A stretch of DNA of 63,998 bases, filler included, from Fonticula-like sp. SCN 57-25 (GCA_001724245.1; 7 parts of 7 records of this genome joined end to end with filler, not necessarily neighbours in it), one strand, 5' to 3'; shown: positions 40,734 through 61,973, counted from the first letter of the whole stretch. Program-made: numbers and translations. Notes: generated by a model from the letters alone, not told the origin.

Positions 40734-41594
40734 TTATTTGAATAAAGCTTCAATGGCCTGGGCACCCAAAGGTAAAAGCTTGCGAGCGCCCACCCCGGCA
40801 TATGCGCCGGCAGGCCGAGGCACTTCTTGAACACGCACCCATTCAATTGAAGGGATTGGCGAGCCCTTCAGATGTGCTTGCCACCAGCAAGCAAGCGTCT
40901 GAGCAAAAAAGTACAACGGAATGGCACCTGAAACACGCCCTTTCTTCCGCAATATATCTACAAATACCTGGCTGCACCACGCGGTTCCACCTTGAATGCC
41001 GACGCCGCCGCGCGCAGGGCTCCACCTGCTACTTTGAGGGGGCGGTGTCTGTAGAAAGTCGCTCATAGCATACACTGTGTTCGCTTCGAGGGCTTGCTGC
41101 GCGTTTCGTCGCAGTAGCTGCTGAATAAAAGGCGACTGCGATGACGTCGGCGGCCGACCGAGCGAGCGGCCTGCTTCTGCCAATAGGCGATCCGCATGCT
41201 GAGCTTGGGCAAGCGACATTGTTCGCAACTCTACATGCAAGTTGACCACTGGGGGAATCGTTGGCTTGTGGCCATGAAAGGTATGCACAGCGACGGCGTG
41301 GCCTGCACGAGCCGCGCAGCTCGCAAAGCAGGCGTCGGCGCCGGCAGCCCCGCCAGTGTGCAAGATGGAGACTGCATCGGCGTGTGCTCGTCCGGAATCT
41401 AGAGTGTAGGGGCGCTTAAGTGATGGAGCAGCGGTATCTGCATAGGCCGAGGCGGCTGGGGGCTTGGGCATGACTGGAGTTGCGTCGTCTGCTTCGAGCT
41501 CGGCCATCGCGGCTGCTGCTTCGCGATCGAGAATGTCGATGCCTTCCGGCAAACCGGGCCCGTTGTCCTGCAGGCAGTGCACAGAGCGCTTCAT
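40734..41594 (-). CDS. Intronless SLOG-like (Rossmannoid) protein resembling phage hypothetical proteins
   Basis: LHTGGAAGAD, LLRRNAQQ, GGTAW, PLYFFAQ, YAGVGAR..GAQAIEALF. Confidence 0.55.
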   Translation of the reverse strand: MKRSVHCLQDNGPGLPEGIDILDREAAAAMAELEADDATPVMPKPPAASAYADTAAPSLKRPYTLDSGRAHADAVSILHTGGAAGADACFASCAARAGHAVAVHTFHGHKPTIPPVVNLHVELRTMSLAQAQHADRLLAEAGRSLGRPPTSSQSPFIQQLLRRNAQQALEANTVYAMSDFLQTPPPQSSRWSPARGGVGIQGGTAWCSQVFVDILRKKGRVSGAIPLYFFAQTLACWWQAHLKGSPIPSIEWVRVQEVPRPAGAYAGVGARKLLPLGAQAIEALFK

Positions 41595-41744
41595 TGCCGA
41601 GCAGACCGCCTGCACACCGCCGCCCTGTCGACTCGTGCTATGAATGGTGACGGTCTCGTGGCATCGGCTTTGCCCGTCTCAGGGCATGAACGGAATGTGC
41701 TGATCCAGTTTGCAGGCCAGTTTGCATCGTGGTGTTTGGTGGAG

Positions 41745-42722
41745 ATGGCCGGGATAGTCCGCAAGGCGTGGAAGGTATGTAGTAGCCGTGCCGCTACTGC
41801 GGCCACTTTGTTGCTTCTTCTGCGTGTTTCTGACAGCGGGCTCTTATAGTTTCCCGGAAAGTGGTCGGGGAACGAAGTCGACAAAGATTTTCTGAAGGGT
41901 GGCAAGGACAGTGTTGACCTGAGCAACACCAACCTGAAGGAGCTCAAGGAGGACCACGTCAAGCAGCTTCTCACCCTCCCCGTTCTTTCTTGGCTTTCAT
42001 TGGCGAACAATTCTCTCACGTCACTTCCTGACCAGTTTGCCCAACTGAGCCAAATATCGATTTTGAACTTGAGCGACAATGGGTTCACGCGATTCCCCAA
42101 CTGCATCCTGCAGCTCACGTCGCTGGTCGAGCTGAACCTTCAGTGCAACCAGCTGGCGTCGCTGCCTGCTGACATTGGTGAGCTGCGCTCGCTGGAGAAG
42201 CTGTCTTTGGCGAAAAATTCAATTGCCGAGCTGCCCGACTCGCTTCGTCAGCTCACGTCTCTTCGCGAGCTCGACATCAGCAACAACCAGCTGACCAAGC
42301 TGCCGCCGGCTATCGGAGCTCTTACAAGAGTTAGCGTTCTCAACCTGGGCGACAATAGCATCAAGTACGCACAACTTTTTTGAGCAGCACGACGCTAACG
42401 CACGAGCAGCGTTCTGCCACGCGAGCTTATGCAACTCGCGCGCTTGCGCGTCTTCAATGTCCGCAACAACCCTCTCGAGCTGCCGCCCCTGTCCGTCGCG
42501 GAAAAGGGCATGCCCGCAATTTTTTCATATTTGCACGAAATTTCCACCGGCGAAAAGGTGGAGGCAAAGTCGTGTTCCTTGGTTCTCAAGGACGCAACGC
42601 AGGTCCCCAGATCCGGCAGCGCCGTGTCGCTCGTGGTGAACGCCAACACCGAAAGCGGGAAGCGTGCGTTTCTCACGCGGTTTGTAGCCTTAAAACTAAT
42701 GCTTTGTATGTCTAGCGGCGTC
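41745..42722 (+). CDS. Leucine-rich repeat protein (possibly a ROCO-type N-terminus), truncated
   Basis: About 7 LxxLxLxxNxLxxLP repeats, then NNPLELPP..GMPAIFSYL. Confidence 0.8.
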
Positions 42723-42822
42723 NNNNNNNNNNNNNNNNNNNNNNNNNNNNNNNNNNNNNNNNNNNNTTAATTAATTAANNNNNNNNNNNNNNNNNNNNNN
42801 NNNNNNNNNNNNNNNNNNNNNN
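42723..42822. other. Artificial contig spacer
   Basis: N44-TTAATTAATTAA-N44. Confidence 0.99.
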
Positions 42823-43202
42823 TGAAACTGTGCGGGCAGTTCAGGCAATCTCGTTAAAAAGGTCTTCCAATGAACGTTTTCATTGCACAACGACCATTTA
42901 TAGTTGACCTACAATTCTACCAATCACATTGCCAGTTCAACAAGAAAACTATTCAACTATTATTTTCCCCAATCCCTGCGCAGATCGAGTGGTGAAGTTG
43001 TGGAAGCACACTTTGTGATCTGAGAGTATTAGCTGCAACAATTTTAGTCAACCTACTGCAGACTGTTTTTTTGCCGTTTCAGTAAATGGTATGTGGAGCA
43101 CGCGAAAAAAAAAAACAACACGACATAAAAAATCATAACACGACACACCAAAAATCCAACAACTACACTAAAATTCATCAACATAACACGACAACACGAT
43201 TC

Positions 43203-44290
43203 ATGCACAAAAATTTCAACACCCACCACAGGACACACCCAAATTGTACGTTACACGTTTGCAGCAGCTCTCCCAGTTACCCTCCCTTTTGCAACAGCAA
43301 AATCATTCTTGTCGGTGGTAAGTTTTTGCGCGAACCAAAGGAACTGAACGTGTGCGTGCAGATAGTGGCGTTGGAAAGACCTCGCTGGTCAGACGATACG
43401 CAACGGGCGAGTATCAAGGACAGTACGAGCCGACCATTGGTGTGGAAGTGCATCCGCTCGCATTCACAACAAGCAAGCACGTAGAACATACAGATAAATG
43501 GCTCACACAATCATCATTCCACACATTTGTGTATATTTTGTGACAATTGTTCCACACATTATGTGATCTTCTATCACTTGTGCAGGGGAAATGTTAAGAT
43601 GAACATTTGGGATACAGCAGGTCAAGAAACTTTGGGTGGGCTACGCGATGCATACTAGTGAGTAACTCAACTGTCCATCTGGAAGCAAAGTATTGACATT
43701 CTGACAAATTATGCATCATACACGTGCTACACATTGTGCACCTCGAACATTTCAAACACATGATCACATATTATGCTGCACTACACTTCACAAATGGTCA
43801 CACATTATGGTACACGACACACATGACCACTTGCAAATGTGACATACGTACACTGGTTGACACATATCCTTGGGAACAATTGCACAGTACACTTGCAGAC
43901 GGTGCACTAATCATGTTTGATGTGACAAACAAGGCTAGTTTTGACAATGTGGGGAAATGGCTTCTTTCTGTGCGAAAAATTTGCGGTTCCAAGATACCAG
44001 TTGTTGTTCTGGGGAACAAGGTGGAGTGTGAAGCACGAGAGGTGAGCATTGAAGAGATTCGTCACTTTCTCAAGGAGCACAAACTGTCCGATTGCTACTA
44101 CGACATTAGCGTGCATCAGCTAATCAACTTTGATCTCCCGATGCTCTCTCTGATTCGCAAGCTACGTAACGACCGGTTCATCTACTGGGTGGAACAAAAG
44201 CAAGCAGGTGGCGATACTGGAGAGAATGAGGACCACTCGCCAATTGAGCGCCAGTTGGATTTTGGCAGCACGTCCACCAACCACCAATGA
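43203..44290 (+). CDS. Divergent Ran-like small GTPase, spliced (start uncertain)
   Basis: [58 protein letters not shown]. Confidence 0.85.
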
Positions 44291-44507
44291 AACATTAAAA
44301 ACACACAACAGTTTTTCATTCACTCACTCTCTTTTCATGCACACAACAGTTTTTCAATCATACATCAACTGTGTCATACATCCATTCATTTTTCCATTGT
44401 GGAACATTTCTTTTACTGTGAGTATGCAACAATGTGCCAATGGCCAGAAAGCACGCATACGGTCAACCTAAACAAAATTTAACTTTTTGCACACATTCGA
44501 ACACTGT

Positions 44508-45632
44508 ATGAGCTGCAGAAACTCAAAGATCCTGTTCGGAGTGTGCGCGCTTGAGAAGAAGGTCAGTACGAAGCGCATGCAGCACCTGTTGCAAGAGGTG
44601 AACAAATTCCATGAGTTTGAGTTTGTAATGTTCAGCGACCAGATGCTCCTGGAGACACCCGTGGAGCAGTGGCCGAGCTGCGAGGTGCTCCTGTGTTTCC
44701 ACAGCTCAGGATTCCCGATTCGACGCGCTCGCAGGTACCAGCAGCGACTCGAGGGCTGTGGGCTACTGCGCGTCTCCCTCCAGGACCTGCGAGTGCAGAA
44801 GCAAGTGTTACTCAACCGGGAGAAGGTGTACAGTTTACTCGCGAATCTCAAGGTACCGGTACCGTGCAACAACTTTATTGCTGTGAAACGTGGAAGGGGA
44901 CATCGCTTCCCATCTCCTACCACAAAACTATGGGACACAGAGGATGCCCTTTTCTATTCGAGCTCAAACTCAACTGTACAACAGCTAGTTGAGAAGGACT
45001 ATGAGAGTGGAAATGGAGGTGAGAATGGAGGTGAAAATGGAAATGGAAATGGAAATGTGGGTGAGAGTGTTCCCTTCCACCCACTTGTCAAGCAACGTGT
45101 CGACAAACCATTGGTCGAGAAGCCGATAGATGCGAACAACCACCATATACGCATCTACTATCCGAAACGAGGGGGCTGTCGCACCCTCTTTCGCAAAGTG
45201 GACAACAAGTGCAGCGAGCTCCATCCACAGCTCAATGACGGCGTTAGAACAAAAGGTTCCTACATTTACGAACCATTGTTGACCACAGTCAATCATATGG
45301 ATATCAAAGTTTACATTGTCGGATGTCAGGCCGATTATGTGTATGCAGAGACTCGCAAGTCACCTGCGGTCTCTGGGGATGTGGAACGTACCAGTGAGGG
45401 ACTTGAGAAGCGACAGCGTCAGGTGGCTCTCACGGAACTGGAGCTTCAGATATGCAAGAAGATTGCACTCGGTTTTAGACAGACTGTGTGTGGCTTCGAT
45501 ATCTTGCGTCTCGGCCCCAACGATAGTCGTGTGTGTGATGTGAATGGTTTCTCCATGGCCAAGGGTTATGAACCCTTCTTTGTGAATGCTGGGCAGGTGA
45601 TTCGTGCGCAAGTTCTCTCAGCGTTCCAGTGA
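44508..45632 (+). CDS. VIP1/PPIP5K inositol pyrophosphate kinase domain only (ATP-grasp)
   Basis: GVCALEKK, PVEQWPSC..FHSSGFP, VEKP..NHHIRIYYP..LFRK, SYIYE, DIKVY, AETRKSP, QTVCGFDILR, VCDVNGFS. Stop follows directly. Confidence 0.9.
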   Translation: MSCRNSKILFGVCALEKKVSTKRMQHLLQEVNKFHEFEFVMFSDQMLLETPVEQWPSCEVLLCFHSSGFPIRRARRYQQRLEGCGLLRVSLQDLRVQKQVLLNREKVYSLLANLKVPVPCNNFIAVKRGRGHRFPSPTTKLWDTEDALFYSSSNSTVQQLVEKDYESGNGGENGGENGNGNGNVGESVPFHPLVKQRVDKPLVEKPIDANNHHIRIYYPKRGGCRTLFRKVDNKCSELHPQLNDGVRTKGSYIYEPLLTTVNHMDIKVYIVGCQADYVYAETRKSPAVSGDVERTSEGLEKRQRQVALTELELQICKKIALGFRQTVCGFDILRLGPNDSRVCDVNGFSMAKGYEPFFVNAGQVIRAQVLSAFQ

Positions 45633-46065
45633 TCTCCAATCTTACATCCTATTGTGTACAATATTGCTTATAACTGAAATAATGGAATATATGTGAATTT
45701 CTTACGGAAACAAGATTCGGAAAACCGTTTCATTTGCCTCATTTTTACTTTTTTTAGACGTCAACTAGTTTCTTTCCTTTGGCAACGAAACTTGTCCTAT
45801 CAGAACTGAAACAGTTACTTTTGTTACTCTTTCAATCGACTTGGTCTTCGTGTGTAAGAACTTTAATTTGGTTTGGCAATTTGATTCGATAAGCTGAACC
45901 AAGTGATTGTATATCCAGTCTCCCATGATTGTCGAGGCGCAAATGTTGTTTAATACGATTGTTTTGATGGACAGCATCAAGTGCTCGCAAGTGCTCAGTT
46001 TTACAACTTTCACTCAACAGAAAGAAATGGCTGGCCATTCTGCTTGAAAAACTACCGTAAAGTGA

Positions 46066-47190
46066 TCAGTTGACTTGATGGCTGGTAGCACTGGTGGCCT
46101 TGTGTATCATATCCACAAGTAGTGGTACTCGTATCTTTGCCAGTTTTAAGCACTCCTTGATATTCTGGTCTACAACATGGTGTTTCAGTGTGCTATGCAC
46201 ATGAGACTCGAAGCCCGAGGAGGAACCTCCTTGATCTTGCTCCAGCAGTGGAAAACTGCTGGGCACAACACTTAAGCGAACAAGATCCAGTGTTTTGGAG
46301 TTGAGGATTACTGTGACACGCATATTCAGTAGACTCTCTTCTTCAGCTGTTGGGTCAACAATGAGGTGCTCTTCTCCACTTTCCTCCACAAAAACACCAA
46401 ATGACAGTGGGATTGGGTAGTATTGCAACACAGACACCGAGCAGCAATCATACATGGTGGAAGAGGAAGAACTGTGATCCTTCTTCCACTGCTCTTCTTT
46501 CAGTGACATGTATTTGTGCTGTTCTTCTTGTTGCTTATCATTGTCCTTCTGCTTCTTCTTATTTTTATCTTGTAGCTCTTTCTTCTTCTTGTTGCCTTGT
46601 AGCTCCTTGTTGTTGTTGCTGTCCTGTTTATCTTCTTGCTTTGGGATGTAATAAACAGTGGATTGCTCTTCATCATAAGTTACCCTAGGGAGTGAGAGAG
46701 AATGCAATGCAGTGAGTGCAGCAAGGAGACATGCATCAAAGATATTCCCATCATGTTCCAGAACATAAATATCGACAAAAAGCACCCAGACTGCCTTCCC
46801 CTCATGAATAGAGAGACGCGAGAGATCGATGCACCCCTGGAGCACCGATCCCATTTGCGCTGCAATGAGTGCACCGAGCTCCTCGCGTGCTGCCGCTCTT
46901 CGCGCACCCTCTGCGTAGCTGGTCAAGTTGGACAGATGGACAGCGGGGAAGCAGAACCCAGCATGTGGCTCGTGCTCCCGCGGTTCCGTGACCAGAGCCC
47001 TGATACCGCACAACACGCTTGTGTTCCCTAGACGCACCATTGCACTCCCATTGGTGCTGCGAAGCATCGATGCGCTGATCAGCGTGTTTCTCGTCTTCAA
47101 CAGCGTGCGTCCATCTGGTCGCATCGCGTGTGCCAAAAATTTGTGGAAGAAGGCGTACGGATGAAGCGTGCGAAATTGCTCAGCCTCCAT
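46066..47190 (-). CDS. EXOSC8: Exosome complex component RRP43 (RNase PH-like)
   Basis: FRTLHPYAFF..RPDGR, GSAMVRLGNTSVLCGI, GKAVWVLFVDIYVLEHDGNIFDA, IVDPTAEEESL. Confidence 0.88.
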   Translation of the reverse strand: MEAEQFRTLHPYAFFHKFLAHAMRPDGRTLLKTRNTLISASMLRSTNGSAMVRLGNTSVLCGIRALVTEPREHEPHAGFCFPAVHLSNLTSYAEGARRAAAREELGALIAAQMGSVLQGCIDLSRLSIHEGKAVWVLFVDIYVLEHDGNIFDACLLAALTALHSLSLPRVTYDEEQSTVYYIPKQEDKQDSNNNKELQGNKKKKELQDKNKKKQKDNDKQQEEQHKYMSLKEEQWKKDHSSSSSTMYDCCSVSVLQYYPIPLSFGVFVEESGEEHLIVDPTAEEESLLNMRVTVILNSKTLDLVRLSVVPSSFPLLEQDQGGSSSGFESHVHSTLKHHVVDQNIKECLKLAKIRVPLLVDMIHKATSATSHQVN

Positions 47191-47557
47191 TTGTTCAATG
47201 TGAACCAAACTGATAGTGCAAATAGCAAGTGTAAAATTGTTGCACAATTGTTGCAGTGATACAAGAAAAATATACACAGTTTTGCAGTTCATTTCAGTTT
47301 CACATAAATGCATTGCAGTTTCACATAAATTCATTGCAATTTCAAAAAATTCATTTCATTGCAGTTTCGTAAATTCATTTCATTTCAGTTTCGCATAAAT
47401 TGTTTACAGTTTCACAAAAGAGTTAGCAGTTTTGATGTGTTTGCACTATTTACTATTTTTCACGTACATGATTTTGCCCAAATTGACTGGACAACCAAGA
47501 TTTGTTTTCTTCGCAATCGCAATCGCAACTGTGACCTAGCAACAACAAGAGCAATTG

Positions 47558-48130
47558 ATGTTTTCGAGAATTTGCCGACGCTCAACGACGATGCTGTTCC
47601 AGCGCGTGAAACCTACCACGGGACTCGTGGGGGTGCCAGTGCAGCCGCGCTGGAGGGACATGATTCTGAAGCTGTGCGACGAGACCCTCACGGAGCTGGA
47701 CACGCTGCCAAAGGGAGTATTCTGGCGCGTGGCCACGGAGAACAACATCCGATTCATCCAACGCGTGGTCTCCGAGAATGAGGATTACGAGAAGGTGGAG
47801 GACATTGTGAATCGCGGTCAGGTCGAGCAGATCATCATGCTCTTCGAGGACACCCTCACACTCATCCCCAAGATGCGAGAGTGGCAGCCCTGGGAGATCA
47901 CGGCAGAATCTGTCAAATTGGAGAGAGAGACCTACGAGAACGGACCTGACCCTTCGTTCCCCAAGGACTACGTCTCCCCACTCCTTGGAAAGGAACTCAA
48001 GACGTGGAGTGGACAGTACACAGTGGAGATCTCCCGCGAGGAGCTCGAGGAGAAGCTGAAGCGAGAGGAGGAGGAGAAGAAGAAGCGAGAGGAGGAGGCA
48101 AAGAAGGCTTCTGCACCACCGAAGAAGTAA
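47558..48130 (+). CDS. NDUFA5: Complex I accessory subunit B13
   Basis: TTGLVGVPV..P, RVATE, GQVEQII..KMREWQPWE, preceded by a presequence-like N-terminus. Confidence 0.88.
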   Translation: MFSRICRRSTTMLFQRVKPTTGLVGVPVQPRWRDMILKLCDETLTELDTLPKGVFWRVATENNIRFIQRVVSENEDYEKVEDIVNRGQVEQIIMLFEDTLTLIPKMREWQPWEITAESVKLERETYENGPDPSFPKDYVSPLLGKELKTWSGQYTVEISREELEEKLKREEEEKKKREEEAKKASAPPKK

Positions 48131-48653
48131 ATCGTTGCAACCAACCCCATGTATCAAGTTTTTTCTTGTTGGAGGCAAGTTGGTGAGGGGTGATGGGATG
48201 GATGGTCAGTAAAAAATGTGTTCCAGTTTGTGCGTTTCACTCTTCCCATTCACCATTTCACTCTTCACTCCTTGTTCAGACTCATCTCTTATTCACCATT
48301 CATTCCTTATGCACATTCGTTCTTCACTCCTTTTTCCCATTCACCATTCATTCCTTATTCCCACTCACCTCTTATTCCCATTCGTTCTTCACCTTCCCAC
48401 TCATCTCTTCTTCTAACTCACCATTCACTCCTTATGCTCACACAATTACCTGTGGAAAGTACATGCTTCCAGTTCACTCCACTCTTCTGGCCAATACTTT
48501 GTTCTTCTCAAAAACTAACGAGTACACTTGGTTGTAGTTATTTTGGCTGTTTTCTTTACTACACTTGTTGTCCGAGTTCTGTTGTACTTGCTATACAGCA
48601 AGTTCTACTGCACTGCACTCATTTGCCGCACTGCTCTGCTTGCACTACGCTTC

Positions 48654-50423
48654 TCACTGCTTGAAATGTCGCAGATCGTTGCTGGAAGCCTGGAAGGGGA
48701 CTGCTGCCCAGTAGCTCTCTGTTTGGTCAATGGGGGCAACGTTCAAGCGCCTCAACCTGCCAAACGAAATGCCATCTCCCTCCAAATCATTCGCAAATTT
48801 GGGTATAGTAGCTTCATCAGCATCACCATTGTTGTCGCTTTTCACTTGCACTACTGGTACTCCTTGTGATATGTGTGGTGGTAGTGATACTTCAGGCTCT
48901 CGTATTGGTAATAATGCTTCTTTTGATTTGTGTAGTGGTGTGGTTGAACTTTTTTCAACATTAATGTCATTATTACTGTTGCCGGGCAGTGGCAGTGGTT
49001 GTCTTGGTGTATCCGAGACTTGGTACTGGTGCAAACAATGCAACAATTGCTCCTTGTTTGAGTGAAAGTACAATGGCTGCACAAGCGTGTTACTGCTCCA
49101 CTTGCTATTCATATGTTCCAGTTGCTGTGTGAGGGTGTCGATATTGCGTTTCATGATTGCAAACTGAACTGGTGATGAAATATGTGTCTTATGCCATTTG
49201 TTTTTCAGCTCATCAACAACCAGCAACAATTGTTTCAATGCCATGCGTTGCTCTCTCAGTAATCGCGCTAATAACACACATTTTACATTAGAATTATCAC
49301 ACTCTAACTCTCATCAACAATAGTACTAGCAACTGGAACACAATCACTCGAATATCTCCTTCTCATTACAGCTACAACACAAATATATCTTCCGTTACAA
49401 TAACACTTTCACTATCGCCACAACAGCACCTTTACTATCACAACAACAGCACTCTCATCATTACCACTACACTACGTTAACATCTCCATTACATACTACG
49501 ACTGTTTGAAGCTATTTTCCATGTGCGCAGCAATTGTTCTCTCTTTTGCACGAGTGCTTCCATGAGCTTCTCAAATTCTCCAACAATGAGCGCATACACA
49601 CTTCCAACTTCCCCCTGATGCTGCTGGTGCTGCTGTGGGTTACAGTGTTCCAACTGTGGAGTCCAGTACATTTGCTGCTGCTTCTCCAATTGCACATCCC
49701 AATCCATTAGCTGTGCGCACCGCTCTTCCACTGATTTGAGGCCCTGTGCAATGAACATCTCGCACTGCTTCTCGTAGCGACTGAGCTCCTCATAATCGTG
49801 CTTAAAGTGCTTCCCTACAAGACAGCGCAGACACACCAGCGCACTGCACGTGCGGCACACTATGTTGCGCGCCATGCCCCCGTGTTCTGGGCACAAATCG
49901 CCTTGTGCTGGCGTGTTGAGGCGCTGGTGAGTGCGCATCACGCGGCTGTTGTGTGTTGCTGAGAAGCACGGTTCGCAGAAATTGGCGTTGCACGTGGTGC
50001 AGTGGCAACTGGCTGCAGCGCCACACTCCTCCTCGCACTTCTTGTTCCCGTGCCACTCGCCAGAATTCGCAACTTCTTTTGTAGTTGCACATAATTTGAG
50101 ATTTCAATTGCAGTTCAATTCAACGATTGGAAATTGTAATAGCGATTACAATGGGAATAACAAGAATCATCGAAAATGAGAAGAAGTCGCAACTTACCTG
50201 GATTGGAGAGTTGAATGTTTATTGTGGGGAGCAACTGTGGTTCCGTATCAAATTTCTCGTTGCACGTTGGACACTTATTGTCTGAAGGCATCAGGATTGA
50301 CATTGCCTGAGCTCGCTGAGAGCATGTCTTGCAAACACAGTGGTTACAGGGCAGCACTATCAAGAGCTCCTGCGGCTCAAAACAATTGACACACAGGCTT
50401 TTCACGTGTTTCTGCGAAAACAT
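48654..50423 (-). CDS. RING - B-box - B-box - coiled-coil (TRIM-like) protein, spliced
   Basis: RING CVNC..LPCNHCVCKTC..CPTC; B-box1 CEEEC..CTTCNANFCEPC..H; B-box2 CPEH..CRTCSALVCLRC..H..H; coiled coil. Confidence 0.8.
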
Positions 50424-50585
50424 GCTGCCACAAGTTGACCATCGTTGTAGGTGCTGATGATTGGGGGGAAAGTGAATGCGCGAGGTAAAAGAAAAGTTTG
50501 TGAAAGTATCTGTATTTCTTTATACACAGTGTACAACCAAGGGGATTTACAGTGTTCGGTTGGAAAGAAGTTGCTTGACATCCGG

Positions 50586-50850
50586 TTAAATCTTTGCAAG
50601 CTTCGCACTCGTGATCTTGTTGTGCATCATCTCCTTCTCAAGTCTCTTGGCAGCCTCCAAACGGAAATCATGGGAACAATGGTGAACATCTGGGTAACGG
50701 TGTTCTCCACAGTACAATCCTTCACACTTGCATTTGAAGCCAAGAAGGCCTACACGTTGTTTGCAGTGTTTGCATCTGTTGATCACCTTCTTTGTTGGAG
50801 ACGCAGGCGTTACCGTCTCTGGCTTCTGTTGCAGCTGCTCTGCTGTTTGT

Positions 50851-50881
<31 letters not shown>

Positions 50882-50909
50882 CAAGTTGAACGGAGGTGAC
50901 GGTGTTCAT
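50586..50909 (-). CDS. AN1-type zinc finger (ZFAND/SAP-like) protein with poly-Q
   Basis: RCKHCKQRVGLLGFKCKCEGLYCGEHRYPDVHHCSHDF..KLAKI. Confidence 0.88.
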
Positions 50910-51602
50910 GCGTGGCAAGTGTTGGTTTGCTTGTTGTGTTTGTTGAAGAAGGTGTTAAACCGAGCCAGTCGGTTTTATTTGGAGTCAAATTCCGTTCCAG
51001 GTTATTTTTGGATGTTTTCCGTGTCAAAAAGTGAAGCGGAACGCACCATTCTGAGAACCTTGATTGTTCCAACTGCGACATTCAAGCCACGTTGCACTCG
51101 AGCAGTAGGAAGCGTTGAGAGGTTGACTGGCTACAAGAATCGGTTGAATGCGACAGATCTTCCTGATCGATGGCACGCAACAAAATTGACAAGTTTCAAN
51201 CAAGTTTCAAACACAACCCCCTGTGAACTCCAAATTCGTGGTGCACGTCTTTCAGTTTAGAGAAGAATGAGTGTGTTGACAACTCAGCACACAGAACAGT
51301 GAAGTGAATTCTCAACTGGTGAGGTAAAGCACAGTTATGCAACTTAGCTAAAGAATTGAATCTGTTTATCCCATAAATACCAACAGAGTTAGCCTGTGGT
51401 TTGCGCTCTACCTGAAAGAAAGTGTATGCTACAGTTTTATGTAAACTCTAATAACCCTTTAGCTCTCAAGTCTTGGACTGCTTTGCTTATTTGACGAGTT
51501 TTTTTGAACATTTTCGTATTAATGATGAAAGCTTCAAGAATCACAAATTGCACAACCACTCTTCTTTACGCTTGGGACAACCCAGCACACAGTTGACGAC
51601 CG

Positions 51603-52757
51603 ATGGCTGGGCTGGAAGAAAAGATGGCAGACTTGCCCTTGGATGAACCAATGCAACCAATTTCGCATTGCGAGTTCAGTGGTGAACGACCTAATCTCGA
51701 GTGGAAGGCTTGTACAGTAGATGATTGCCAATCCTTTGCACGATTCTTGCCCATTCCTCAGCAAATCTCCATGGAAAAGAAGCCATCTCACCTCTTTAAG
51801 CAGCATTCAGATGAGTGGCACAAATTACGAAATGAACGGCTGACAGCCTCAAATCTGAGTTGTGTTCTTGGTTTCTTTGAGCCTTCCACAGTCAAAATGC
51901 TCAAGTTGAACCCTCAATACTATGTCAACCACCAAAGAGTGGTGCACATGGCCTCTACAATGAGACAACGCGTGCACTCACCGCAGTCAGTCAACGAAAG
52001 CTTTGATTTCCCCGAGAGCGTCAAAACTGCCATGAAATGGGGCTCCAACCATGAATTGAACGGGATATTGACCTTTCTTCAGGGGTTCAACGAGTTTTAC
52101 GTGAAGGAAACTGGTCTCTGGTCTTTCACATTGGAGAAACTTCCTGCCAGTTGTGCAAAATTGGGAGTTGAGTTCTCCCACCTACCAGCAATTGGGGCAA
52201 GTCCAGATGGTCTAGTTTGCAGATTGAAAGATGGTGATCCAGTGGAATACTTTTCGGAGAAGGAAGAAGTTGTCTCACTCCTTGAAATCAAATGTCCTTG
52301 TCCCTTCAAGGAGAAGAAGATGGCAAGGAAAGAGGAAATTTCAGCCATTAGTGAGCAAGCTATTGCATCTAGCAACAATCAGTACACATATGTCAAAATG
52401 AGGCCACATCCCAGTGTGCCAAGTTACTACATGCCACAACTTCAATGTCAGATGTTAGTTACAGGAGCCAAACAGTGTTATTATGTCTGTTGGACTCCAA
52501 CTGCCGGTGCCAAGGTGTACCAAGTGGATTTTGATGACGAGTACTGTGGAATAATGCTCCTCTTGATCAAGAACTTTTATGAGCGTTTTGTGCTCCCAAA
52601 GATCGAAATAGTGCCATCAGAAGATTTCTTTTTCAACCACCCAGAGTATGCTGGATTTGTAAATCGCACAATTGCCTTGGCATGTGAATCAAAACTAGTG
52701 AAAGATGTGAAGGATGTGGTAGTAGGTGGTAGAGAAGAGCCTCTCTTTCATTCATAA
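51603..52757 (+). CDS. YqaJ/lambda-exonuclease-like PD-(D/E)xK nuclease, intronless
   Basis: QHSDEWHKLR..LTAS, MKWGSNHE, GASPDG, LEIKCP, YYMPQLQCQM, YYVCWT. Confidence 0.88.
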   Translation: MAGLEEKMADLPLDEPMQPISHCEFSGERPNLEWKACTVDDCQSFARFLPIPQQISMEKKPSHLFKQHSDEWHKLRNERLTASNLSCVLGFFEPSTVKMLKLNPQYYVNHQRVVHMASTMRQRVHSPQSVNESFDFPESVKTAMKWGSNHELNGILTFLQGFNEFYVKETGLWSFTLEKLPASCAKLGVEFSHLPAIGASPDGLVCRLKDGDPVEYFSEKEEVVSLLEIKCPCPFKEKKMARKEEISAISEQAIASSNNQYTYVKMRPHPSVPSYYMPQLQCQMLVTGAKQCYYVCWTPTAGAKVYQVDFDDEYCGIMLLLIKNFYERFVLPKIEIVPSEDFFFNHPEYAGFVNRTIALACESKLVKDVKDVVVGGREEPLFHS

Positions 52758-52843
52758 AGAGAGATGTCAACAAGAAATCACGCATTTTCTCAATAAATAC
52801 TTGGTTTTTTATTTTCAGTGAGAATTTACACACAATTTAACAA

Positions 52844-54036
52844 CTACAGTAGGATCAAATTATTGCAGTCCATAACCACAGCAGTGGATTCAGCAGTAGA
52901 TGTTGCACTTTCAGAGAGGATGTGCTTGATCATCTTGGTGTGCTGCCCCTTGATTTCTGCCAAGTCCTGTGCACTGAAATTAGAGATCCCCTTGGCTAGC
53001 ATTTTGCCCTCTGGAGTAGCTAGCCACACAATGTCCATCTTGTCAAAGGAGCCCACAGTACCTACAATACCTACGGGTAGCAGACTCTTGCCCCTGTTGC
53101 TAACTGCACGCATGGCCCCATGGTCCACAAGTATGGTTCCCTTGGGTACAAGAGTGGGACTTGCCAGCAGTTGCTTGCGCTTGGAAACGTGCAACTGGAC
53201 CAGCAGCTGCTTATTGAGAGCGAGGTCCAGCAATTGTTCCTCTCCCTGTTCACCCTGTTGCTGCTTGAGTAACACTGAGACACGTCCCTCCAGTGAGAAA
53301 ATATGCTTGTCCTGCACTTGTAGCGATTTGAGACTATTAGCCAAATTGAACAAGTAATCACAATTGCGGCCACTCGGTCCAACACTCTGAAAAAAAAATG
53401 AAATGATATATTCCATGTATTCAATGGAAAGTGAGAAAGTGAAAATACATGTGCAATGGAAAGTGGAAGGAACAAATATGTTAATGAGTAACAATTCATC
53501 AACCACCAGTTGACTGTACACTTACATTTGAAATAATGGCGGCAATTTTCTCTTCTTCCTCATTCTCAACTAACTCTGGGTTATCACTCATGGACACGTA
53601 GACATATGCATTGGTGGCAATCACCTCCTGCTGCTGCTTATTGCAAGAAACGGATTGGTTCACAAAAATGGGAACAAATTTTCTGACATAGCCACCCTGC
53701 TCGCGAATGTCGAGATCTCCAAAAATTTGAAGCGCAATGCTCTCCCGGACAACATAGCACACGCCGTACACGCATTCCGACGGGTGCTTGCCGCCCTGCT
53801 CCACAAGCGTCACCACGCGACCAGGCTGCTCCTTGGTGCCGCGGTGGTATTGGCAGCTCTGCCAGAATCTGCGCACAAAGCCCTTCACGTAGCCTGCAAA
53901 TTTTCTTTCGTACGGGAAGCCCGGTCTTCACCATTTTGATCACGGTTGGTGAGCAAGGCGAGTGTAGAATCGCAACGTACCGCCACATTAGCGACCCGTA
54001 GCCAAATATGCACACTTGGCCTTCTCCTTGGCACAT
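52844..54036 (-). CDS. ChaC glutathione gamma-glutamylcyclotransferase fused to a ProB-type PUA domain, spliced
   Basis: IFGYGSLMW, RRFWQS..HRGT..PGRVVTL, LDIREQGGY, GPSGRNCDYL. In frame with GTILVDHGA..GKSLLPVGI..GSF..AKGISNFS..IKG. Confidence 0.85.
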
Positions 54037-54640
54037 CTTTGAGTTGCTGCTTGCTGTGCGGACAATTTCACACGAAATATTTTTAGAAATTTCACACGAA
54101 GAACAAACACTGTTCCGAAAAAAACTTAGAGGGTGAATTGAATGGTTGTGGGGGAGGATTGCACTCGTGTCCTTGTTAACTCCCTTGGGTTGTTAGAGTT
54201 TACCAAGTTTACAGCACTTGTTCTTGTTTCAACTGTCAAGCCTATTTTTCTTTGAAAAGTAAAAACTGTATTCAATCATGTGGTACTGTTCATCACTGAG
54301 ATTTGTAAAATCAACTCTTGTGCAAAAGAGGGAAAGGGAAGATGACCTGAGAGCTTACAAATGATATGAAAGAATCTTGGTTATTTGCACAGTGTGTTAC
54401 CGGAGACAATTTAGAACAACTTTTACTTGTTGGCAAAAGACGCTTCTCTCTCTGGATAATGAGATTAACTTTGCAGCAAAAGTTTTTGCTGTAATCACTC
54501 ACAACTATTAGGCACTCTACGAATAGTAACCTTCGTTTGTTTGTGCCAGTTGCATTTCTTCCTCCTTAATTTGGTTTAAGAGCATCTCTATTGCAAAAGA
54601 GTGAGTGAGATGAGCATCTATTCTCAATTCTTTACCCTTG

Positions 54641-55486
54641 TTATAGACTGCTGACAGATAACAGGCTGAAATAGAAATGGTGATAGCCTGTACAACTTTT
54701 GGTTAAGGAAATGAGGTGCAATTTTTTACTTACACAAACAATAATCCAGAGTACCATCCCAGCAAAGAAGGACAAGATAAAGATAAGCGAAGAAAAATTT
54801 TCTGGATTGTTGTTGGTCTGGTATATTCCATACACCACTGAACTGTTAAACATGTGATTATTGTTGTCAAAATATGATTATTGTTCGTTAAAATATGGTT
54901 ATTGTTTGTTTGTTAAAATCTGTACTAATGGATGTTCCGTACTGAGCAATATTAACTACAAATTGGGCTACGAATTCAATAAGCAGAAGAGTGATGAACT
55001 GATAGCAAAGCAGGTGTCAGGAAAGCAAAAAAAAAAAGAATACCCGCTTCTGTTGGACAGCAACAATAACAACTTACAACCAATGCAAACAGAAATTTGG
55101 ACGAGAATCGCATAGTCGAGGCAAACCCAACAACTGACACAACAAACATGTTCCAGAGCCCATTGAGGCCGATTTGCACTACAAACACAATATTCCACCC
55201 CTTGACTGATGAGGCTGCTTTGTCCGTTTTGAAACTACTTCCGAAAACGATGAGGTTCCAAATCATGCTGACCACCCCAAGCAAGCCTGCAATCTGTGTT
55301 CATTGTTATTTTTCTTGAAAAATCGCGATTTTCACAAACAAAGATGCCAAACGCCATTGCTTTCACAACAAAAGTTAATGCCTTTGCTCGCCAAACCAGC
55401 TTTGGTGGTAGCATATCCACATAATTAACATTTACATTGCTGAGCTTTTCCTTGTTGTTTGCGTAATCTTCGCCGAGTTCGTCCAT
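54641..55486 (-). CDS. Hypothetical multi-pass membrane protein, spliced (model uncertain)
   Basis: Several hydrophobic exon-sized ORFs separated by GT-AG introns. Confidence 0.4.
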
Positions 55487-55529
55487 TTAATCGGTGTAAA
55501 CTTCAGTCAACCAGTTTTTTATTCCGGTA

Positions 55530-56098
55530 ATGGGGAGCAAACAGGAAGTGCTGGCGACTACATTCCTCATTTTCTTGTGCTCTTTTGTGTTGGTTGTGCT
55601 TGGTCAGACCAACTGCAACACATTTCAAACGTGTGCAAGTTGTGCCCTCGGGAACTGCAGTTCGTTTCCCCAATTTTTCTGGTTTGATGCACTCACTCAC
55701 CAGTACAATTTACGTTTCAGCTTGGTGCTCAAGAATCTTTGCGTGCTATAATGAAAGCATGTCCAGTGTCGTATGTGAAAAGGAGCAGTACAATGTTTCC
55801 TTCCTGGGAGACCCCATGTTACACTTTAACTCCGATAATGAGATGGATTGCGTCTACGGTGCCAAACGTGTGAGAGATGCGCGGTATTGTCCGCAATTTT
55901 CTGGTACGAACATGTTGTAAAGTGCTAACCAATTTAACTGTTTTTAAATTATTTCATTTGTATCATTTGCATTATTTGCATTATTTGCATCATTTGCATC
56001 ACTTTCTCAGTCACAATTGAACAGGATGCTCGGTACTCAACCAATTTGCTTGGTCTGGACAGGACTATCAAACTTCGTGTTGCTGGCGTGGGAGATGA
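55530..56098 (+). CDS. Secreted/cell-surface Cys-rich protein with a PSI-like motif, truncated
   Basis: Signal peptide, then CNTFQTCASC..C|AWC..C. Confidence 0.5.
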
Positions 56099-56198
56099 NN
56101 NNNNNNNNNNNNNNNNNNNNNNNNNNNNNNNNNNNNNNNNNNTTAATTAATTAANNNNNNNNNNNNNNNNNNNNNNNNNNNNNNNNNNNNNNNNNNNN
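56099..56198. other. Artificial contig spacer
   Basis: N44-TTAATTAATTAA-N44. Confidence 0.99.
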
Positions 56199-57721: not shown

Positions 57722-57935
57722 GACAAGCAATGACAAGGGGCAGTAACGATGTGTCAGCGTTACCGATATCCACAGTCGATTCACCTGCCCGCGCGATCCG
57801 CAGTATGGTGACCGAAATTAGTTGCACGAACGTGCGCCGGCCCTTAGGCTACCGGTAAATTAGACGTGCGTCATTTGTTTGAGCGCCTGCTGCCAATTGT
57901 ACCTACCCTCACACTCTTGCCTTTTTAGACGGATC

Positions 57936-60900
57936 ATGGAAGAGATCTACGATTGTGTTGCTGACATCGTCGAGGATGACACCGACCGTGTCTACAACTG
58001 GATCGTTGAAAACTTTGAATACAGCGAGCTCGAGCTCATCACCGAGAACGACTTTATCAAGTATCTTGGTTTGCCGAACGCAAAGGCAAGGCAGCTCGCG
58101 ACATCTTTGAGGGAAGCCGCCGCCGCACCACGCAAGCAGCTCGTGGCCAACTTTTCAGACCTCAACGAGTCCGAACTCGCCTTTAGCCAGATTCAGGAGA
58201 TGCGCGAGCCGAAGAATTCTTTCAAAATCCTAGTCCTGAGCGGCAGCCAGATGGGCGACTCTTCAAGCGCACAAGCCGTCGCTCTGCAGCTACTCCACAT
58301 CGACTGGGATATTGTGATTGATCTCGACCAGAACCCGAGCGACAAACACAGCGCGTGGACAGCAGTCACCCGCATCGGCAATCTAAAGCGCCGGCTAGAG
58401 AATTACCGTATTTCCAATGATTGTACTGTGTTTGGACCGCGCGACCTGGAGGCATGTTCCAAAGGCCATACCTTGCTCTGGCTCAGGGCCAGTACCGGCA
58501 GAAACAAGTACACTTTCAAGTACTGGCCTGTCGTCGAGTTCATATTCGATGTGCTGGCGACATGCGCGATTCGCCCCATCCTACTTGTCGGCGTCATGCT
58601 AACCGCCTCGGACCGAGTGCGGACAGTCATTGATAAAGTCAATGAATGGCACGAGCAGACGCTTGATGTAAGCGACTATCCCCTGCACGTTGCTTGTTTG
58701 GCCGTGCCAGAGGCTTGCGTCGCGAGCATGGCTGATTCTGTTGAGCAGAAGTTTTTCACGATGCCACTGGACATTATTACTTCCAAGCTTTGCAGCCATC
58801 TTGCTGAGCCAATGCCGTCCGAGTACATTCGCATGGCAGGCCATGGTGTTCGTACGCGGAACGCGGCCGCATGGAGAGGAATTCTTGCCCAGGTGCACGA
58901 AAACCTTGGCTCACCTGGGAGCGATGTCGCGATGCAAGAGCTCAACATTGCCGCGAAAACATTTGGGGCGGAACTTGTTGATGATCACGAGCCCGACCCG
59001 CACGTGAAGCACGGCTTTTTCAGAGTTTCGTTCACAAGTAACTCGACAGATGTGATATCCGGCGACCGCCTGCTGTACCTTGACTTTCTCCGTGGCTCCA
59101 CTCTGCCATGGTCGCTCCTCGCTCTCGACCAGGACCTCGACGCAGATATCCCCAAGCTCTTTTGCCGCAGCGAATTTGGCGAGATACGGGATCACATTTC
59201 CAACCTTTTACATCGTCCTGCAGTCGAGTGGAACGACACGTCGACGCTCGTCATTTGCGAGCACGATGCATCCGCCGGCGCGACCACCCTTGGTCGCCAG
59301 CTACTGCGCCACTTTGCTGACAAATTCCCGTGCTTCATCGTGGAAGATGCGAGCGGCTGCGCCGAGTATCTTGCGGTGGCTCAGAGGAACCTTTTTATGG
59401 ACAAGCCTCTTTTGTTGCTGCTGGACAATGTGGCAGATCCAGCAGATTTCGATCGCATGCTGCACTACCGGCATCCATGCGGAGTAAAGGCGATCGTTCT
59501 TGCCATGGTCCGCGCGTCCAACGGCAGCTTTGAGCAAGTCCGTGGAGGCCCGAAGGTGTTTAGTATCCGGCAACTCGGGAAACAAGACAAGGAAAGTCTG
59601 GAAGCAGGGATCAAACAATTCATAGCTGATATCCCTGGACTCGCATTTCCTAGTACCACTGTCACGGCCTTTGATGTCAAAACGCCTTTCTTCTACGGGC
59701 TTCTTTACTGTGGCGTTCTTTACAGCAACGAACGAGTGCAGAGCCACGTCGACCAATGCTTCGATGTGATCCTGAATGAACCCGAGTCCGTTCAAGTCCA
59801 GGCAGCCGGTTTGCTGAGTATCGCCACCACCCTCTTCAGACACGCCGATGTTGTGGGTATTCCCGAGAATTACGCCATCAAGCTCGCTTCAGCAGACATT
59901 ATCAACACAGGGGCCGACAGGTCGTCCTTGGCATCCGCGATTCTGAACTTGCTTGTTTGTCGGCACGACACTCGAGACCGCCTATTTGTTCTTCCCAACG
60001 AACAAGTAGCGCAAGCAGTCGAGCAGAGGATCAGGCATTGCTTTCATATTTCTCCTGGTGTACTTGCGCTCGTATGGTTTTGCTCCCGCCTTCTCGACTT
60101 TGACTCGATGGATCAATTTGGCGTGAACATTCTGCCAATGAGCGAGCTTCCTGCCAAGCTCGTGAACGTCTCCATTCCGATAGCGCAGTGGCTTAACAAA
60201 TATCAACTGCCTCGCACCATGGACGATGAGTTTCTCAAGATTGTGTTTACCGGGCTCTTTTCCCGTCATATCCGTCATGATGTGTCCGAGGGTGATGACA
60301 GCGGCACGCCGGAAAATGCGCCGAGTTCAAGTCGAAGCCAGCCGTTTTCCACGTTTGTGAATGAATTGCAGGAGGAACATGGGCTGGACATGGCGCGGAC
60401 ACTCTTTTCTCTCGCGGCAGCGGCAGGAGGAGACGAGCATGTCCTCGCTCACTATGGCCGGTTTCTCACTATCACAGCGGAAGTCAACAAGAACTTGCCT
60501 TTGATGCGCGAAGGCTTTAACATTGTCAACAAAACATTGAAGAATACGCGCGACCCGCCTTCGCGATTGTGTCATCTCGGCGGAGCGTTGGCATTGCGCA
60601 TTATCAAGCACATTCTGAACAACACGCTCGCAGATGACTCTCTTGCCATCGTCCGAGAGTATGCCGAGTCTGCGGAGACGCTACTTCTCAAGATTGGTGA
60701 CCCTCTCCGGAGCGATCCCGAGAGTTTTGCGCTCGTTGTTCTTCGTGAAACATGGCGGGCCGACCTTAGGCTTACTCTGCACGATTTCGCAGCCAGCTGG
60801 TCGTGGTATCACGAAATGTCACAAAGGAAGTTCTTCTCCGAAGAACCGTCGACGTCGCTCTTTTTGGATGTTGATGGCATGCGAATGGAGTGTCTACAAA

Positions 60901-61973
60901 GGAAGTTCTTCTCCGAAGAACCGTCGACGTCGCTCTTTTTGGATGTTGATGGCATGCGAATGGAGTGTCTACAACTGCTCGACCTTGCCGACCACTTCAA
61001 CAGCCAAACTGACGACAGCGGACGAGTGAATCGGGATCAGCTTATCCGGGACAAGTTTTTCGAAGTGTTGAAATTCATTGTCTTTTATCGGCAGACGACA
61101 CGCGAAAAAGTCGCTAGGCAGCTTTCGCGCCAGTTGAACAACAAGGCCTTTAAAACATTCCTACCCGTCCTGGCCGGCCAGATTTTAATCGGCCAACATC
61201 CCACTGCTCGCCAGAGTCGTTGGAGACCGTTTTCAGACGAGGCCTTTCAGGACGAACTCCATGCGACTTCGCATCAGTTGTTGGATGGCATATCCTATAC
61301 TGCTGCCTGGCATGGCACGGTTCCAATGATGGGCTTGCGAGATCTTCTTGCTATAAATATTGAGTTTGGCTGCCGCTCGCCCATATGGTTTCAGATGGGT
61401 AATGCCCAGGGTATCCTCGATTTTCTCCTTACGGTCAGGAAAGCTCTTGGCACCGACCAGAAAAAGGACCCACAAATGTGGACTATGTTCTGCGCGATTG
61501 CCATGGCGGCCCTCAAAGTAGCGCAAACGCCGACGGAGCGCGGCGCCGCTATCAAGGAAGTTGTTGCCGCAAATGATGTCATTGCGTCATTGGTCGACTT
61601 TTCGCCCGCTGTTCAGCGCAACGCGAGCGCAACGGCTTACCTTTTCCTCTCATCGGCGGGCGGTCTTTCGTGCATTCGTGACGCAGGGTACGTACGCGAG
61701 TCTCTCGATGAAAGCAGAATCGAAGGCGCGAGTCCCAGCGTGTTTTGGAATACGCTCGCCTACGAGAGACTCTGGCGCATCCCAGGGAAGCTGACCAACG
61801 GCGGCAAGACCGGTATTGTACGTTTCGATGGCCGGGCGTTTAAACTGCGCGTGACGCATTTGCGTGGGGCGCCCACCTATCGGAATGGTCTTCCTGTTGA
61901 ATTTTACCCGATCGTCACTGCCGCGGGGCTTGTGCTCAGCGTCGCCACCGTCCAAACCACGACATTGGAATGA
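57936..61973 (+). CDS. SAMD9/SAMD9L-like STAND NTPase (SAM, SIR2-like, P-loop, TPR, OB), intronless, ~1345 aa
   Basis: SAM-like N-terminus; LLHIDWDIVIDLD; degenerate Walker A HDASAGATTL..RHFADKFPC; Walker B PLLLLLDN; FSTFV; AHYGRF; C-terminal LWRIPGK..VEFYPIVTAAGL. Confidence 0.78.
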   Translation: MEEIYDCVADIVEDDTDRVYNWIVENFEYSELELITENDFIKYLGLPNAKARQLATSLREAAAAPRKQLVANFSDLNESELAFSQIQEMREPKNSFKILVLSGSQMGDSSSAQAVALQLLHIDWDIVIDLDQNPSDKHSAWTAVTRIGNLKRRLENYRISNDCTVFGPRDLEACSKGHTLLWLRASTGRNKYTFKYWPVVEFIFDVLATCAIRPILLVGVMLTASDRVRTVIDKVNEWHEQTLDVSDYPLHVACLAVPEACVASMADSVEQKFFTMPLDIITSKLCSHLAEPMPSEYIRMAGHGVRTRNAAAWRGILAQVHENLGSPGSDVAMQELNIAAKTFGAELVDDHEPDPHVKHGFFRVSFTSNSTDVISGDRLLYLDFLRGSTLPWSLLALDQDLDADIPKLFCRSEFGEIRDHISNLLHRPAVEWNDTSTLVICEHDASAGATTLGRQLLRHFADKFPCFIVEDASGCAEYLAVAQRNLFMDKPLLLLLDNVADPADFDRMLHYRHPCGVKAIVLAMVRASNGSFEQVRGGPKVFSIRQLGKQDKESLEAGIKQFIADIPGLAFPSTTVTAFDVKTPFFYGLLYCGVLYSNERVQSHVDQCFDVILNEPESVQVQAAGLLSIATTLFRHADVVGIPENYAIKLASADIINTGADRSSLASAILNLLVCRHDTRDRLFVLPNEQVAQAVEQRIRHCFHISPGVLALVWFCSRLLDFDSMDQFGVNILPMSELPAKLVNVSIPIAQWLNKYQLPRTMDDEFLKIVFTGLFSRHIRHDVSEGDDSGTPENAPSSSRSQPFSTFVNELQEEHGLDMARTLFSLAAAAGGDEHVLAHYGRFLTITAEVNKNLPLMREGFNIVNKTLKNTRDPPSRLCHLGGALALRIIKHILNNTLADDSLAIVREYAESAETLLLKIGDPLRSDPESFALVVLRETWRADLRLTLHDFAASWSWYHEMSQRKFFSEEPSTSLFLDVDGMRMECLQRKFFSEEPSTSLFLDVDGMRMECLQLLDLADHFNSQTDDSGRVNRDQLIRDKFFEVLKFIVFYRQTTREKVARQLSRQLNNKAFKTFLPVLAGQILIGQHPTARQSRWRPFSDEAFQDELHATSHQLLDGISYTAAWHGTVPMMGLRDLLAINIEFGCRSPIWFQMGNAQGILDFLLTVRKALGTDQKKDPQMWTMFCAIAMAALKVAQTPTERGAAIKEVVAANDVIASLVDFSPAVQRNASATAYLFLSSAGGLSCIRDAGYVRESLDESRIEGASPSVFWNTLAYERLWRIPGKLTNGGKTGIVRFDGRAFKLRVTHLRGAPTYRNGLPVEFYPIVTAAGLVLSVATVQTTTLE
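60821..60974 (+). repeat. Exact in-frame 75-bp tandem duplication
   Basis: QRKFFSEEPSTSLFLDVDGMRMECL is encoded twice by identical DNA. Confidence 0.95.

Follow-up and report, generated by a model that had tools for sequence, protein, structure and literature searches.

The gene on the minus strand at positions 54,036 to 52,844 of a 63,998-nucleotide (nt) stretch of DNA from Fonticula-like sp. SCN 57-25 (GCA_001724245.1; seven parts of seven records of the genome joined end to end with filler, hereafter the window) is a divergent new member of a conserved family of protist proteins in which a ChaC gamma-glutamylcyclotransferase (GGCT) is followed by a PUA domain of the glutamate 5-kinase (G5K, ProB) type. 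This ChaC-PUA family is known to databases and uncharacterised in the literature searched. The fusion is real but was already present in public databases, so that what the window contributes is a divergent member and not a discovery. On balance, the protein would be a ChaC2-like glutathione-degrading enzyme that carries a tethered ProB-derived PUA as a regulatory or assembly module.

Strand reading and splicing by coordinates showed an intact eukaryotic gene of three exons (Table 1). The coding sequence of 999 nt comprised 332 codons and a TAG, with a single terminal stop and no internal one. Removal of intron 1 produced the conserved W-R-P-G-F junction without an indel compared to the homologues, and the complete spliced product also aligned without indels at either exon junction. 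Read-through of intron 2 reached a stop after 8 codons, and the GC content was 50.3% for the coding sequence compared to 31.7% for intron 2. The N-terminal M-C and the FGYGSL..WR stretch of exon 1 were kept across an alignment of 74 fusion rows. Exon 3 alone encoded the end of ChaC, the linker and the full PUA in one open frame. Since this exon on its own matched both the ChaC C-terminus and the complete PUA domain, the junction between the two domains lies inside one exon without a stop.

Exon 2 and exon 3 were scanned with Pfam, and exon 1, which corresponds to approximately positions 1-12 of the ChaC profile, was placed by homologue alignment. Exon 2 (P0002, 133 amino acids (aa)) matched ChaC PF04752 at profile positions 13-134 of 176 with 99.7 bits (cut-off 21), and exon 3 (P0001) matched the C-terminus of the same profile at positions 137-174 of 176 with 28.4 bits against the same cut-off of 21. 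A search of all PDB sequences showed that the first 43 residues of exon 3 matched human ChaC2, and the ChaC part in exon 3 aligned to ChaC2 residues 135-178 of 184, which indicated that the domain is complete. The active site of human ChaC2 comprises Y6/G7/S8, H39, R40, Y87, Y109, Y144 and the strictly conserved catalytic E83 (PMC7022552, cited here and below from the accessible part of the paper). In the alignment, Y6/G7/S8 corresponded to Y13/G14/S15 of the window protein, with L16 completing the YGSL motif, while H39/R40 corresponded to H46/R47, E83 to E94, and Y87, Y109 and Y144 to Y98, Y128 and Y163, respectively. All the active-site residues listed in that part of PMC7022552 were present in the window protein. 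In addition, the glutamate of the LD.RE motif and the other core positions were mostly conserved at ≥95% in the 74-row fusion alignment.

Among full-length homologues, P0053 was the closest, with 49% identity to the window protein, and its AlphaFold2 model had a predicted local distance difference test score (pLDDT) of 89.9 and a predicted template modelling score (pTM) of 0.67. Standing in for the window protein, this model showed the GGCT fold, with a template modelling score (TMt) of 0.88 and a root mean square deviation (rmsd) of 2.0 Å against ChaC2 (6ky1), and a TMt of 0.69 against yeast Gcg1 (5hwi). Identity of P0053 to these solved relatives was 37-38% for ChaC2 and 30-31% for Gcg1. The GGCT fold and the active-site set are common to the window protein, human ChaC2 (6K95, 6KY0, 6KY1), yeast Gcg1 (5HWI, 5HWK) and PF04752. 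However, the window protein is approximately 137 residues longer than ChaC1, ChaC2 and Gcg1, which are without a PUA, and the additional residues form a helical linker and the PUA. Overall, the ChaC part looks catalytically competent, and judging from family membership and the active-site residues, its reaction is most likely the conversion of glutathione to 5-oxoproline and Cys-Gly.

The remainder of exon 3 scored 70 bits (cut-off 24.8) over the complete PUA profile (PF01472, positions 1-74 of 74). The best NCBIfam family for this exon was TIGR01027 (proB) at positions 257-353 of 363 with 80.3 bits, a score below the equivalog cut-off of 186, and the next family reached 32.6 bits. The Pfam scan found no match to the amino-acid-kinase domain PF00696 in exon 2 or exon 3. 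Because there is no amino-acid-kinase domain and TIGR01027 stays below its cut-off, the gene is not a ProB, and only its C-terminal module is ProB-derived. When the PUA part was searched against all PDB sequences, only glutamate 5-kinases were matched, namely those of E. coli (2j5t/8zpj, expected value (E) 2e-11) and B. thailandensis (4q1t), and no RNA-binding PUA protein was found at E 0.01. BLASTP against a bacterial ProB (P0006) produced 35% identity over 111 columns, beginning in the ProB linker (K-K-Q-W) and ending only where each protein ends. Over its last 10-25 residues or so (KRKQLLAS), the window linker is homologous to the linker found ahead of the PUA in ProB; the alignment to the B. 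thailandensis G5K started at residue 56 of exon 3, and the BLASTP alignment to ProB at residue 70.

The fold showed the same affinity. The AlphaFold2 model of exon 3 (pLDDT 82.8) had helices at residues 27-45, 49-57, 59-63 and 67-75, and at least its first ten Foldseek matches were all G5K chains. The match with G5K 2j5t had an rmsd of 1.3 Å over 100 columns, 33% identity and an E of 1.7e-11, and the best match to a PUA other than that of G5K had an E of 1e-5. For the P0053 model, the PUA superposed on G5K 2j5v with an rmsd of 0.9 Å over 94 columns. A protein atlas returned only clusters of bacterial stand-alone PUA proteins with a score of 0.81, below the 0.9 level, and was uninformative. Bacterial ProB (E. 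coli 2J5T, 2J5V and 8ZPJ; B. thailandensis 4Q1T) was the best match in both sequence and fold to the last 110 or so residues of the window protein. The RNA-binding PUA proteins (Cbf5/dyskerin, archaeosine TGT, Nip7, NSun6 and MCT-1) have the PUA fold and the G-x-S-L-L-x-x-G loop in common with the window protein but were much weaker matches, with Foldseek E of 1e-5 to 1e-2 compared to 1.7e-11 for G5K. The C-terminal module was confirmed as a PUA of the G5K (ProB) type by sequence profile, PDB sequence search and fold.

These results agree closely with the first-pass annotation as far as the make-up of the gene is concerned. The coordinates that it gave, 52844-54036, coincide to the base with the stop codon and the ATG of the minus-strand gene, and all the motifs that it named (FGYGSL, LDIRE, GPSGRN, KRKQLLAS, GKSLLPVGI and NNLILL) were found. 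The complete ChaC that it proposed was supported by the Pfam matches over both exons and by the ChaC2 alignment reaching residue 178 of 184, and its assignment of the C-terminus to the linker and PUA of ProB was upheld by TIGR01027, the PDB search, the BLASTP alignment to the last residue and Foldseek. Its placement of the fusion within one exon also held, as exon 3 has Pfam matches to both ChaC and PUA with no stop. The roles that it put forward, namely sensing of glutamate or proline, oligomerisation and RNA binding, are speculative.

It is very improbable that the fusion is an artefact in which neighbouring ChaC and PUA genes were merged by misassembly or read-through, or that it is a decaying pseudogene. 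Such an origin could be entertained for a locus that is known from DNA alone and that lies in a window with N runs, but the junction falls within one uninterrupted exon, splicing would use canonical sites, and no catalytic residue has been lost. No N run was found inside the gene, the nearest being at 51200 and 56099. Moreover, an ENA protein (P0066, 190 aa) was 95.8% identical over 189 aa to residues 144-332 of the window protein, junction included. The first residues of P0066 are translated from the end of intron 2, which makes this protein a separate genomic record of an almost identical exon 3. The same architecture was also found in 73 database proteins, open reading frames (ORFs) from Trinity transcripts included. 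Misassembly was rejected on the absence of N in the gene, the reproduction of the junction in P0066 and the alignment of homologues without indels.

When exon 3 was used to look for longer proteins, 6 matches were obtained, three of which had PF04752 together with PF01472 and three of which were ProBs. A profile built from those three fusions and the window exons produced 1768 matches among 7999 scored candidates, and ChaC and PUA were both present in 61 of 120 clusters among the matches listed. In a version of the library clustered at 50% identity, this profile had 9343 matches at E ≤1e-3; among the 150 listed, 7 were fusions already known. A Pfam scan of 34 further rows together with P0053 and P0066 showed both domains in 14 of 36. 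This gives at least 19 fusion representatives at 50% identity, a lower bound since approximately 108 rows, mostly short or ChaC-only matches, were unscanned. The first-pass annotation had not recognised the fusion, and the novelty that this implied was not supported by these counts (61 of 120 listed clusters, at least 19 representatives at 50% identity). It had named an already widespread architecture as grounds for refutation, and this is largely the case, with annotated members in dictyostelids and Acrasis kona.

Annotated ChaC-PUA proteins were found in Acrasis kona and in six dictyostelids, namely Cavenderia fasciculata (as 'PUA domain-containing protein'), Acytostelium subglobosum, Polysphondylium violaceum, Dictyostelium citrinum, D. 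purpureum and Tieghemostelium lacteum. Cavenderia and Tieghemostelium belong to Dictyostelia (Amoebozoa) and Acrasis to Heterolobosea (Discoba). Three further fusions came only from EukProt, as ORFs of Trinity transcripts (P0003, marked 'complete', and P0020) and as a gene-model entry (P0048). Many other members were on contigs of 1.0-1.4 kb, a size that would fit transcripts. The proteins of dictyostelids and A. kona have the same order of the two domains, the same M-C start at the N-terminus and 35-39% full-length identity to the window protein. The window protein was only 38-39% identical to any named member; its closest relatives were P0066 (95.8%, exon 3) and P0053 (49%). Full-text literature searches on ChaC or gamma-glutamylcyclotransferase with PUA or Dictyostelium found no paper on the ChaC-PUA fusion in the accessible parts of the texts. 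Among the other proteins recovered, ChaC was fused C-terminally to a GNAT acetyltransferase (P0150), a glucosidase II beta-like PRKCSH domain (P0187) and a 4HBT thioesterase (P0231), and on account of these three fusions ChaC seems prone to C-terminal domain accretion.

A tree of the ChaC domain was produced by a quick search under LG+G4 from 160 rows (73 fusions, window included, and 87 ChaC-only) and 179 columns; P0066 was left out as most of the domain is missing. On this tree the fusion label needed 5 changes, compared to approximately 53 with shuffled labels. One fusion clade of 51 rows included the dictyostelids, with a single ChaC-only row (P0131) nested in it. The other fusion clade had 23 rows, 22 of them fusions, included A. 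kona, the window protein and P0053, and was supported by a Shimodaira-Hasegawa-like approximate likelihood ratio test (SH-aLRT) value of 87. A ChaC-only paralogue of A. kona (P0069) nested in this second clade, and the same species has a ChaC-PUA protein (P0064). Because P0069 nests inside a fusion clade, a secondary loss of the PUA after duplication is suggested. P0059 fell outside both fusion clades, the backbone between the clades had support as low as 4, and strict monophyly of the fusions was not obtained in this free tree of 160 rows. When all fusions and the two nested rows were constrained together, the log-likelihood was 8.58 above that of the free tree, and the approximately unbiased (AU) test gave a p-AU of 0.566, so that a single origin was not rejected.

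For the PUA domain, a tree was produced from 73 fusion and 30 ProB rows, the ProB rows being P0006-P0008 and one in three of 80 loci of Beta- and Gammaproteobacteria. One branch with an SH-aLRT of 93 parted all ProBs from all fusions. Overall, the trees are compatible with a single origin of the fusion, and the linker and PUA were probably captured once, long ago, from a glutamate 5-kinase (ProB).

The PUA residues of the 74 fusion rows were compared with those of 82 ProB rows, which comprised Beta- and Gammaproteobacteria and three others. A core was common to the fusions and ProB (G235, D240, G242, A243, L254, L255, G258, G264, F266 and G285). Outside this core, three ProB residues were nearly or entirely missing from the fusions: W278 (100% in ProB, 0% in fusions), R320 (99% and 7%) and R372 (100% and 4%). 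Conversely, the fusions had S248 in 97% (2% in ProB), H301 in 82% (2%), G299 in 97% (37%) and V323 in 85% (2%). ProB W278, R320 and R372 correspond to E. coli W268, R309 and R361, for R309 by alignments and for the other two presumably, by the numbering offset. In E. coli G5K, the PUA touches the kinase domain through W268, R309, R329, R361 and D363, the filaments and bundles of the enzyme require the PUA, and PUA residues Y352 and Y354 stabilise a regulatory loop; the Y352A/Y354A change raised the half-maximal inhibitory concentration of proline about 15-fold (bioRxiv 10.1101/2024.09.19.614007, cited throughout from the accessible part of the preprint). The loss of the kinase-docking ProB residues, together with the fixation of a set of its own, implies a new partner surface after capture, and the fusion PUA is read as having changed its partner surface in this way.

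In the mechanism proposed, an intact and selectively maintained protist gene would encode a ChaC2-like gamma-glutamylcyclotransferase that turns glutathione into 5-oxoproline and Cys-Gly. The ProB-derived linker and PUA would be tethered at its C-terminus by a helical and partly disordered linker, and the PUA would act as a protein-protein module which either regulates the ChaC domain, for example at its gating loop, or drives self-assembly. The PUA of the fusions, devoid of the ProB residues for kinase docking and with its own set fixed, may offer its new surface to a new partner. This role of the PUA is proposed with lower confidence than the ChaC reaction. The oligomerisation or regulation that it would involve has an experimental precedent in the E. 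coli G5K (bioRxiv 10.1101/2024.09.19.614007).

Several points weigh against a regulatory or assembly module on a working ChaC enzyme. The window gene is known from genomic sequence alone, a second glutamate of ChaC2 (E74) is a leucine in the window protein, and the literature searches found no activity, oligomer or binding data on any ChaC-PUA protein in the accessible parts of the texts. The ProB sets used for the residue comparison and for the PUA tree were narrow and without eukaryotic G5K, and the trees behind the single capture came from a quick LG+G4 search, with the group for the AU test named after the tree had been seen. At the E. coli residues of the filament and bundle interfaces E277, R314, D322, R337, Q344 and E345, the window protein has T, W, M, E, K and M, respectively, and because these residues differ, the E. 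coli mechanism is not transferable residue by residue. Finally, the pTM of 0.67, the disordered stretch at residues 216-224 of the P0053 model and the variable linkers suggest a flexible tether rather than a fixed dock between ChaC and PUA. In the P0053 model, the disordered stretch follows a long helix at residues 182-214. The linkers of the family were 11 to 108 aa long; that of the window protein has 40 aa, compared to medians of 16 for its own clade and 65.5 for the clade with the dictyostelids.

We rejected a transfer of the interface for filaments and bundles from E. coli, as its residues are not conserved in the window protein; the preprint likewise states that PUA proteins do not conserve them (bioRxiv 10.1101/2024.09.19.614007). 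Channelling between ProB and ProA was also rejected as the role of the PUA, as no channelling is reported and the ProB of C. jejuni is noted to be without a PUA (PMC11573504).

RNA binding is the main rival to a regulatory or assembly role of the PUA. The PUA would then recruit ChaC to tRNA, rRNA or mRNA, or RNA would regulate glutathione turnover, and we consider this doubtful. PUA is an RNA-binding fold in proteins of the Cbf5, ArcTGT, Nip7 and NSun6 type, which were the weaker structural matches here, and the fusions keep the generic loop of PUA domains, G-x-S-L-L-x-x-G. In addition, E. coli ProB bound a tktA antisense RNA fragment specifically in SELEX and electrophoretic mobility shift assays, but weakly, with a dissociation constant far above 10 µM, and the authors of that study advise caution (PMC10380284). 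No G5K-type PUA is known to have a physiological RNA target. The positions conserved in both fusions and ProB are Gly, Ala, Asp or hydrophobic and not basic, which argues against an RNA-binding surface. The isoelectric point (pI) of the PUA is 8.1 in the window protein and has a median of 8.9 in clade B, but clade A is near neutral, with a median pI of 6.85 and a median net charge of 0; the pI values do not decide for or against RNA binding.

That the ChaC domain acts on another gamma-glutamyl compound of glutamate or proline metabolism, with the ProB module reflecting a link between the pathways, is quite improbable. The donor of the PUA is the first enzyme of proline synthesis, whose product also cyclises to 5-oxoproline, the ligands given in the title of entry 2j5v are glutamyl-5-phosphate and pyroglutamic acid, and ChaC is elsewhere fused to the metabolic modules GNAT, 4HBT thioesterase and PRKCSH. 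However, all the ChaC2 residues of the glutathione pocket listed in the accessible part of PMC7022552 are conserved, and the closest solved relatives are the glutathione-specific ChaC2 (37-38%) and Gcg1 (30-31%). Moreover, the ligands of G5K bind to the kinase domain and not to the PUA (bioRxiv 10.1101/2024.09.19.614007).

A more far-reaching form of the regulatory or assembly role is that the PUA gives ChaC a switch which ordinary ChaC enzymes do not have, through self-assembly, docking on the catalytic domain or control by RNA, and that this switch tunes glutathione turnover in amoebae; this is put forward as an unlikely but consequential possibility. Self-assembly would then be dependent on a ligand or state, analogous to the PUA-dependent filamentation and feedback control of E. 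coli G5K. If this were true, amoebae would tune glutathione turnover to their amino-acid or redox status via the PUA, and the ProB PUA, long a puzzle, would be a portable regulatory module for 5-oxoproline-forming enzymes, shown by a natural experiment. ChaC, like G5K, ends in 5-oxoproline chemistry. The ChaC-PUA family marks a lineage-specific layer on the breakdown of glutathione in amoebae, and Dictyostelium offers tractable genetics. A conserved family with the same PUA on a different enzyme provides an independent handle on the role of the module. For the PUA of ProB itself, roles in filamentation and feedback inhibition were assigned only by the 2024 preprint, as far as its accessible part goes (bioRxiv 10.1101/2024.09.19.614007).

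Table 1. Features of the ChaC-PUA gene in the window, with positions counted from the first letter of the window.
Feature	Position	Strand	Content and basis
Exon 1	53981..54036	-	ATG and first 18 2/3 codons, FGYGSL (YGS) motif; sequence, splice check
Intron 1	53926..53980	-	55 nt, GT..AG
Exon 2	53526..53925	-	ChaC core with H46/R47, catalytic E94, Y98 and Y128; Pfam, alignment to human ChaC2 6k95/6ky0/6ky1
Intron 2	53387..53525	-	139 nt, GT..AG, GC 31.7%
Exon 3, whole	52844..53386	-	180 aa, TAG included
Exon 3, first part	53258..53386	-	ChaC C-terminal helices (GPSGRN, Y163); Pfam, ChaC2 alignment
Exon 3, linker	53150..53257	-	Q/E-rich, predicted helical; AlphaFold2 model of exon 3, alignments
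Exon 3, PUA domain of G5K type	52847..53149	-	Ends in C-terminal NLILL; Pfam, TIGR01027, Foldseek 2j5t
Stop codon TAG	52844..52846	-	Sequence, splice check
AATAAA hexamer	52808..52813	-	31 nt downstream of the stop; consensus match only, may not be the signal of the host

The surroundings of the gene in the window were eukaryotic, with domains of the C2, exosome RNase PH, PPIP5K, G-patch, TRAPPC9 and SNARE families. The neighbouring PPIP5K exon matched only proteins of 32-49% identity, and those that spanned more than 90% of the exon were 32-38% identical and came from very diverse eukaryotes. No match was found anywhere in the window with Rfam at the gathering threshold. The convergent neighbour at 51597-52757 on the plus strand is an open frame of 386 codons with a YqaJ-like viral recombinase/exonuclease domain (PF09588, 46.6 bits), and it ends 87 nt from the stop of the ChaC-PUA gene. 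YqaJ-like domains belong more typically to phages and mobile elements than to the housekeeping genes of eukaryotes. Two long open frames, one of 1075 codons at 18900-22127 on the minus strand and one of 1369 codons at 57864-61973 on the plus strand, had no Pfam match at E ≤1e-4.

The GC content was approximately 55-64% over 1-38 kb, 40-48% over approximately 38000-56000 and 54% beyond 56 kb, and the ChaC-PUA gene sits in the low-GC block. Paired runs of 44 N, 12 bases apart, occurred every 8.5 kb or so, at 8530-8629, 17127-17226, 25703-25802, 34249-34348, 42723-42822 and 56099-56198. These paired runs have the look of regular masking or scaffolding, not of biology. The N at 51200 is a single base.

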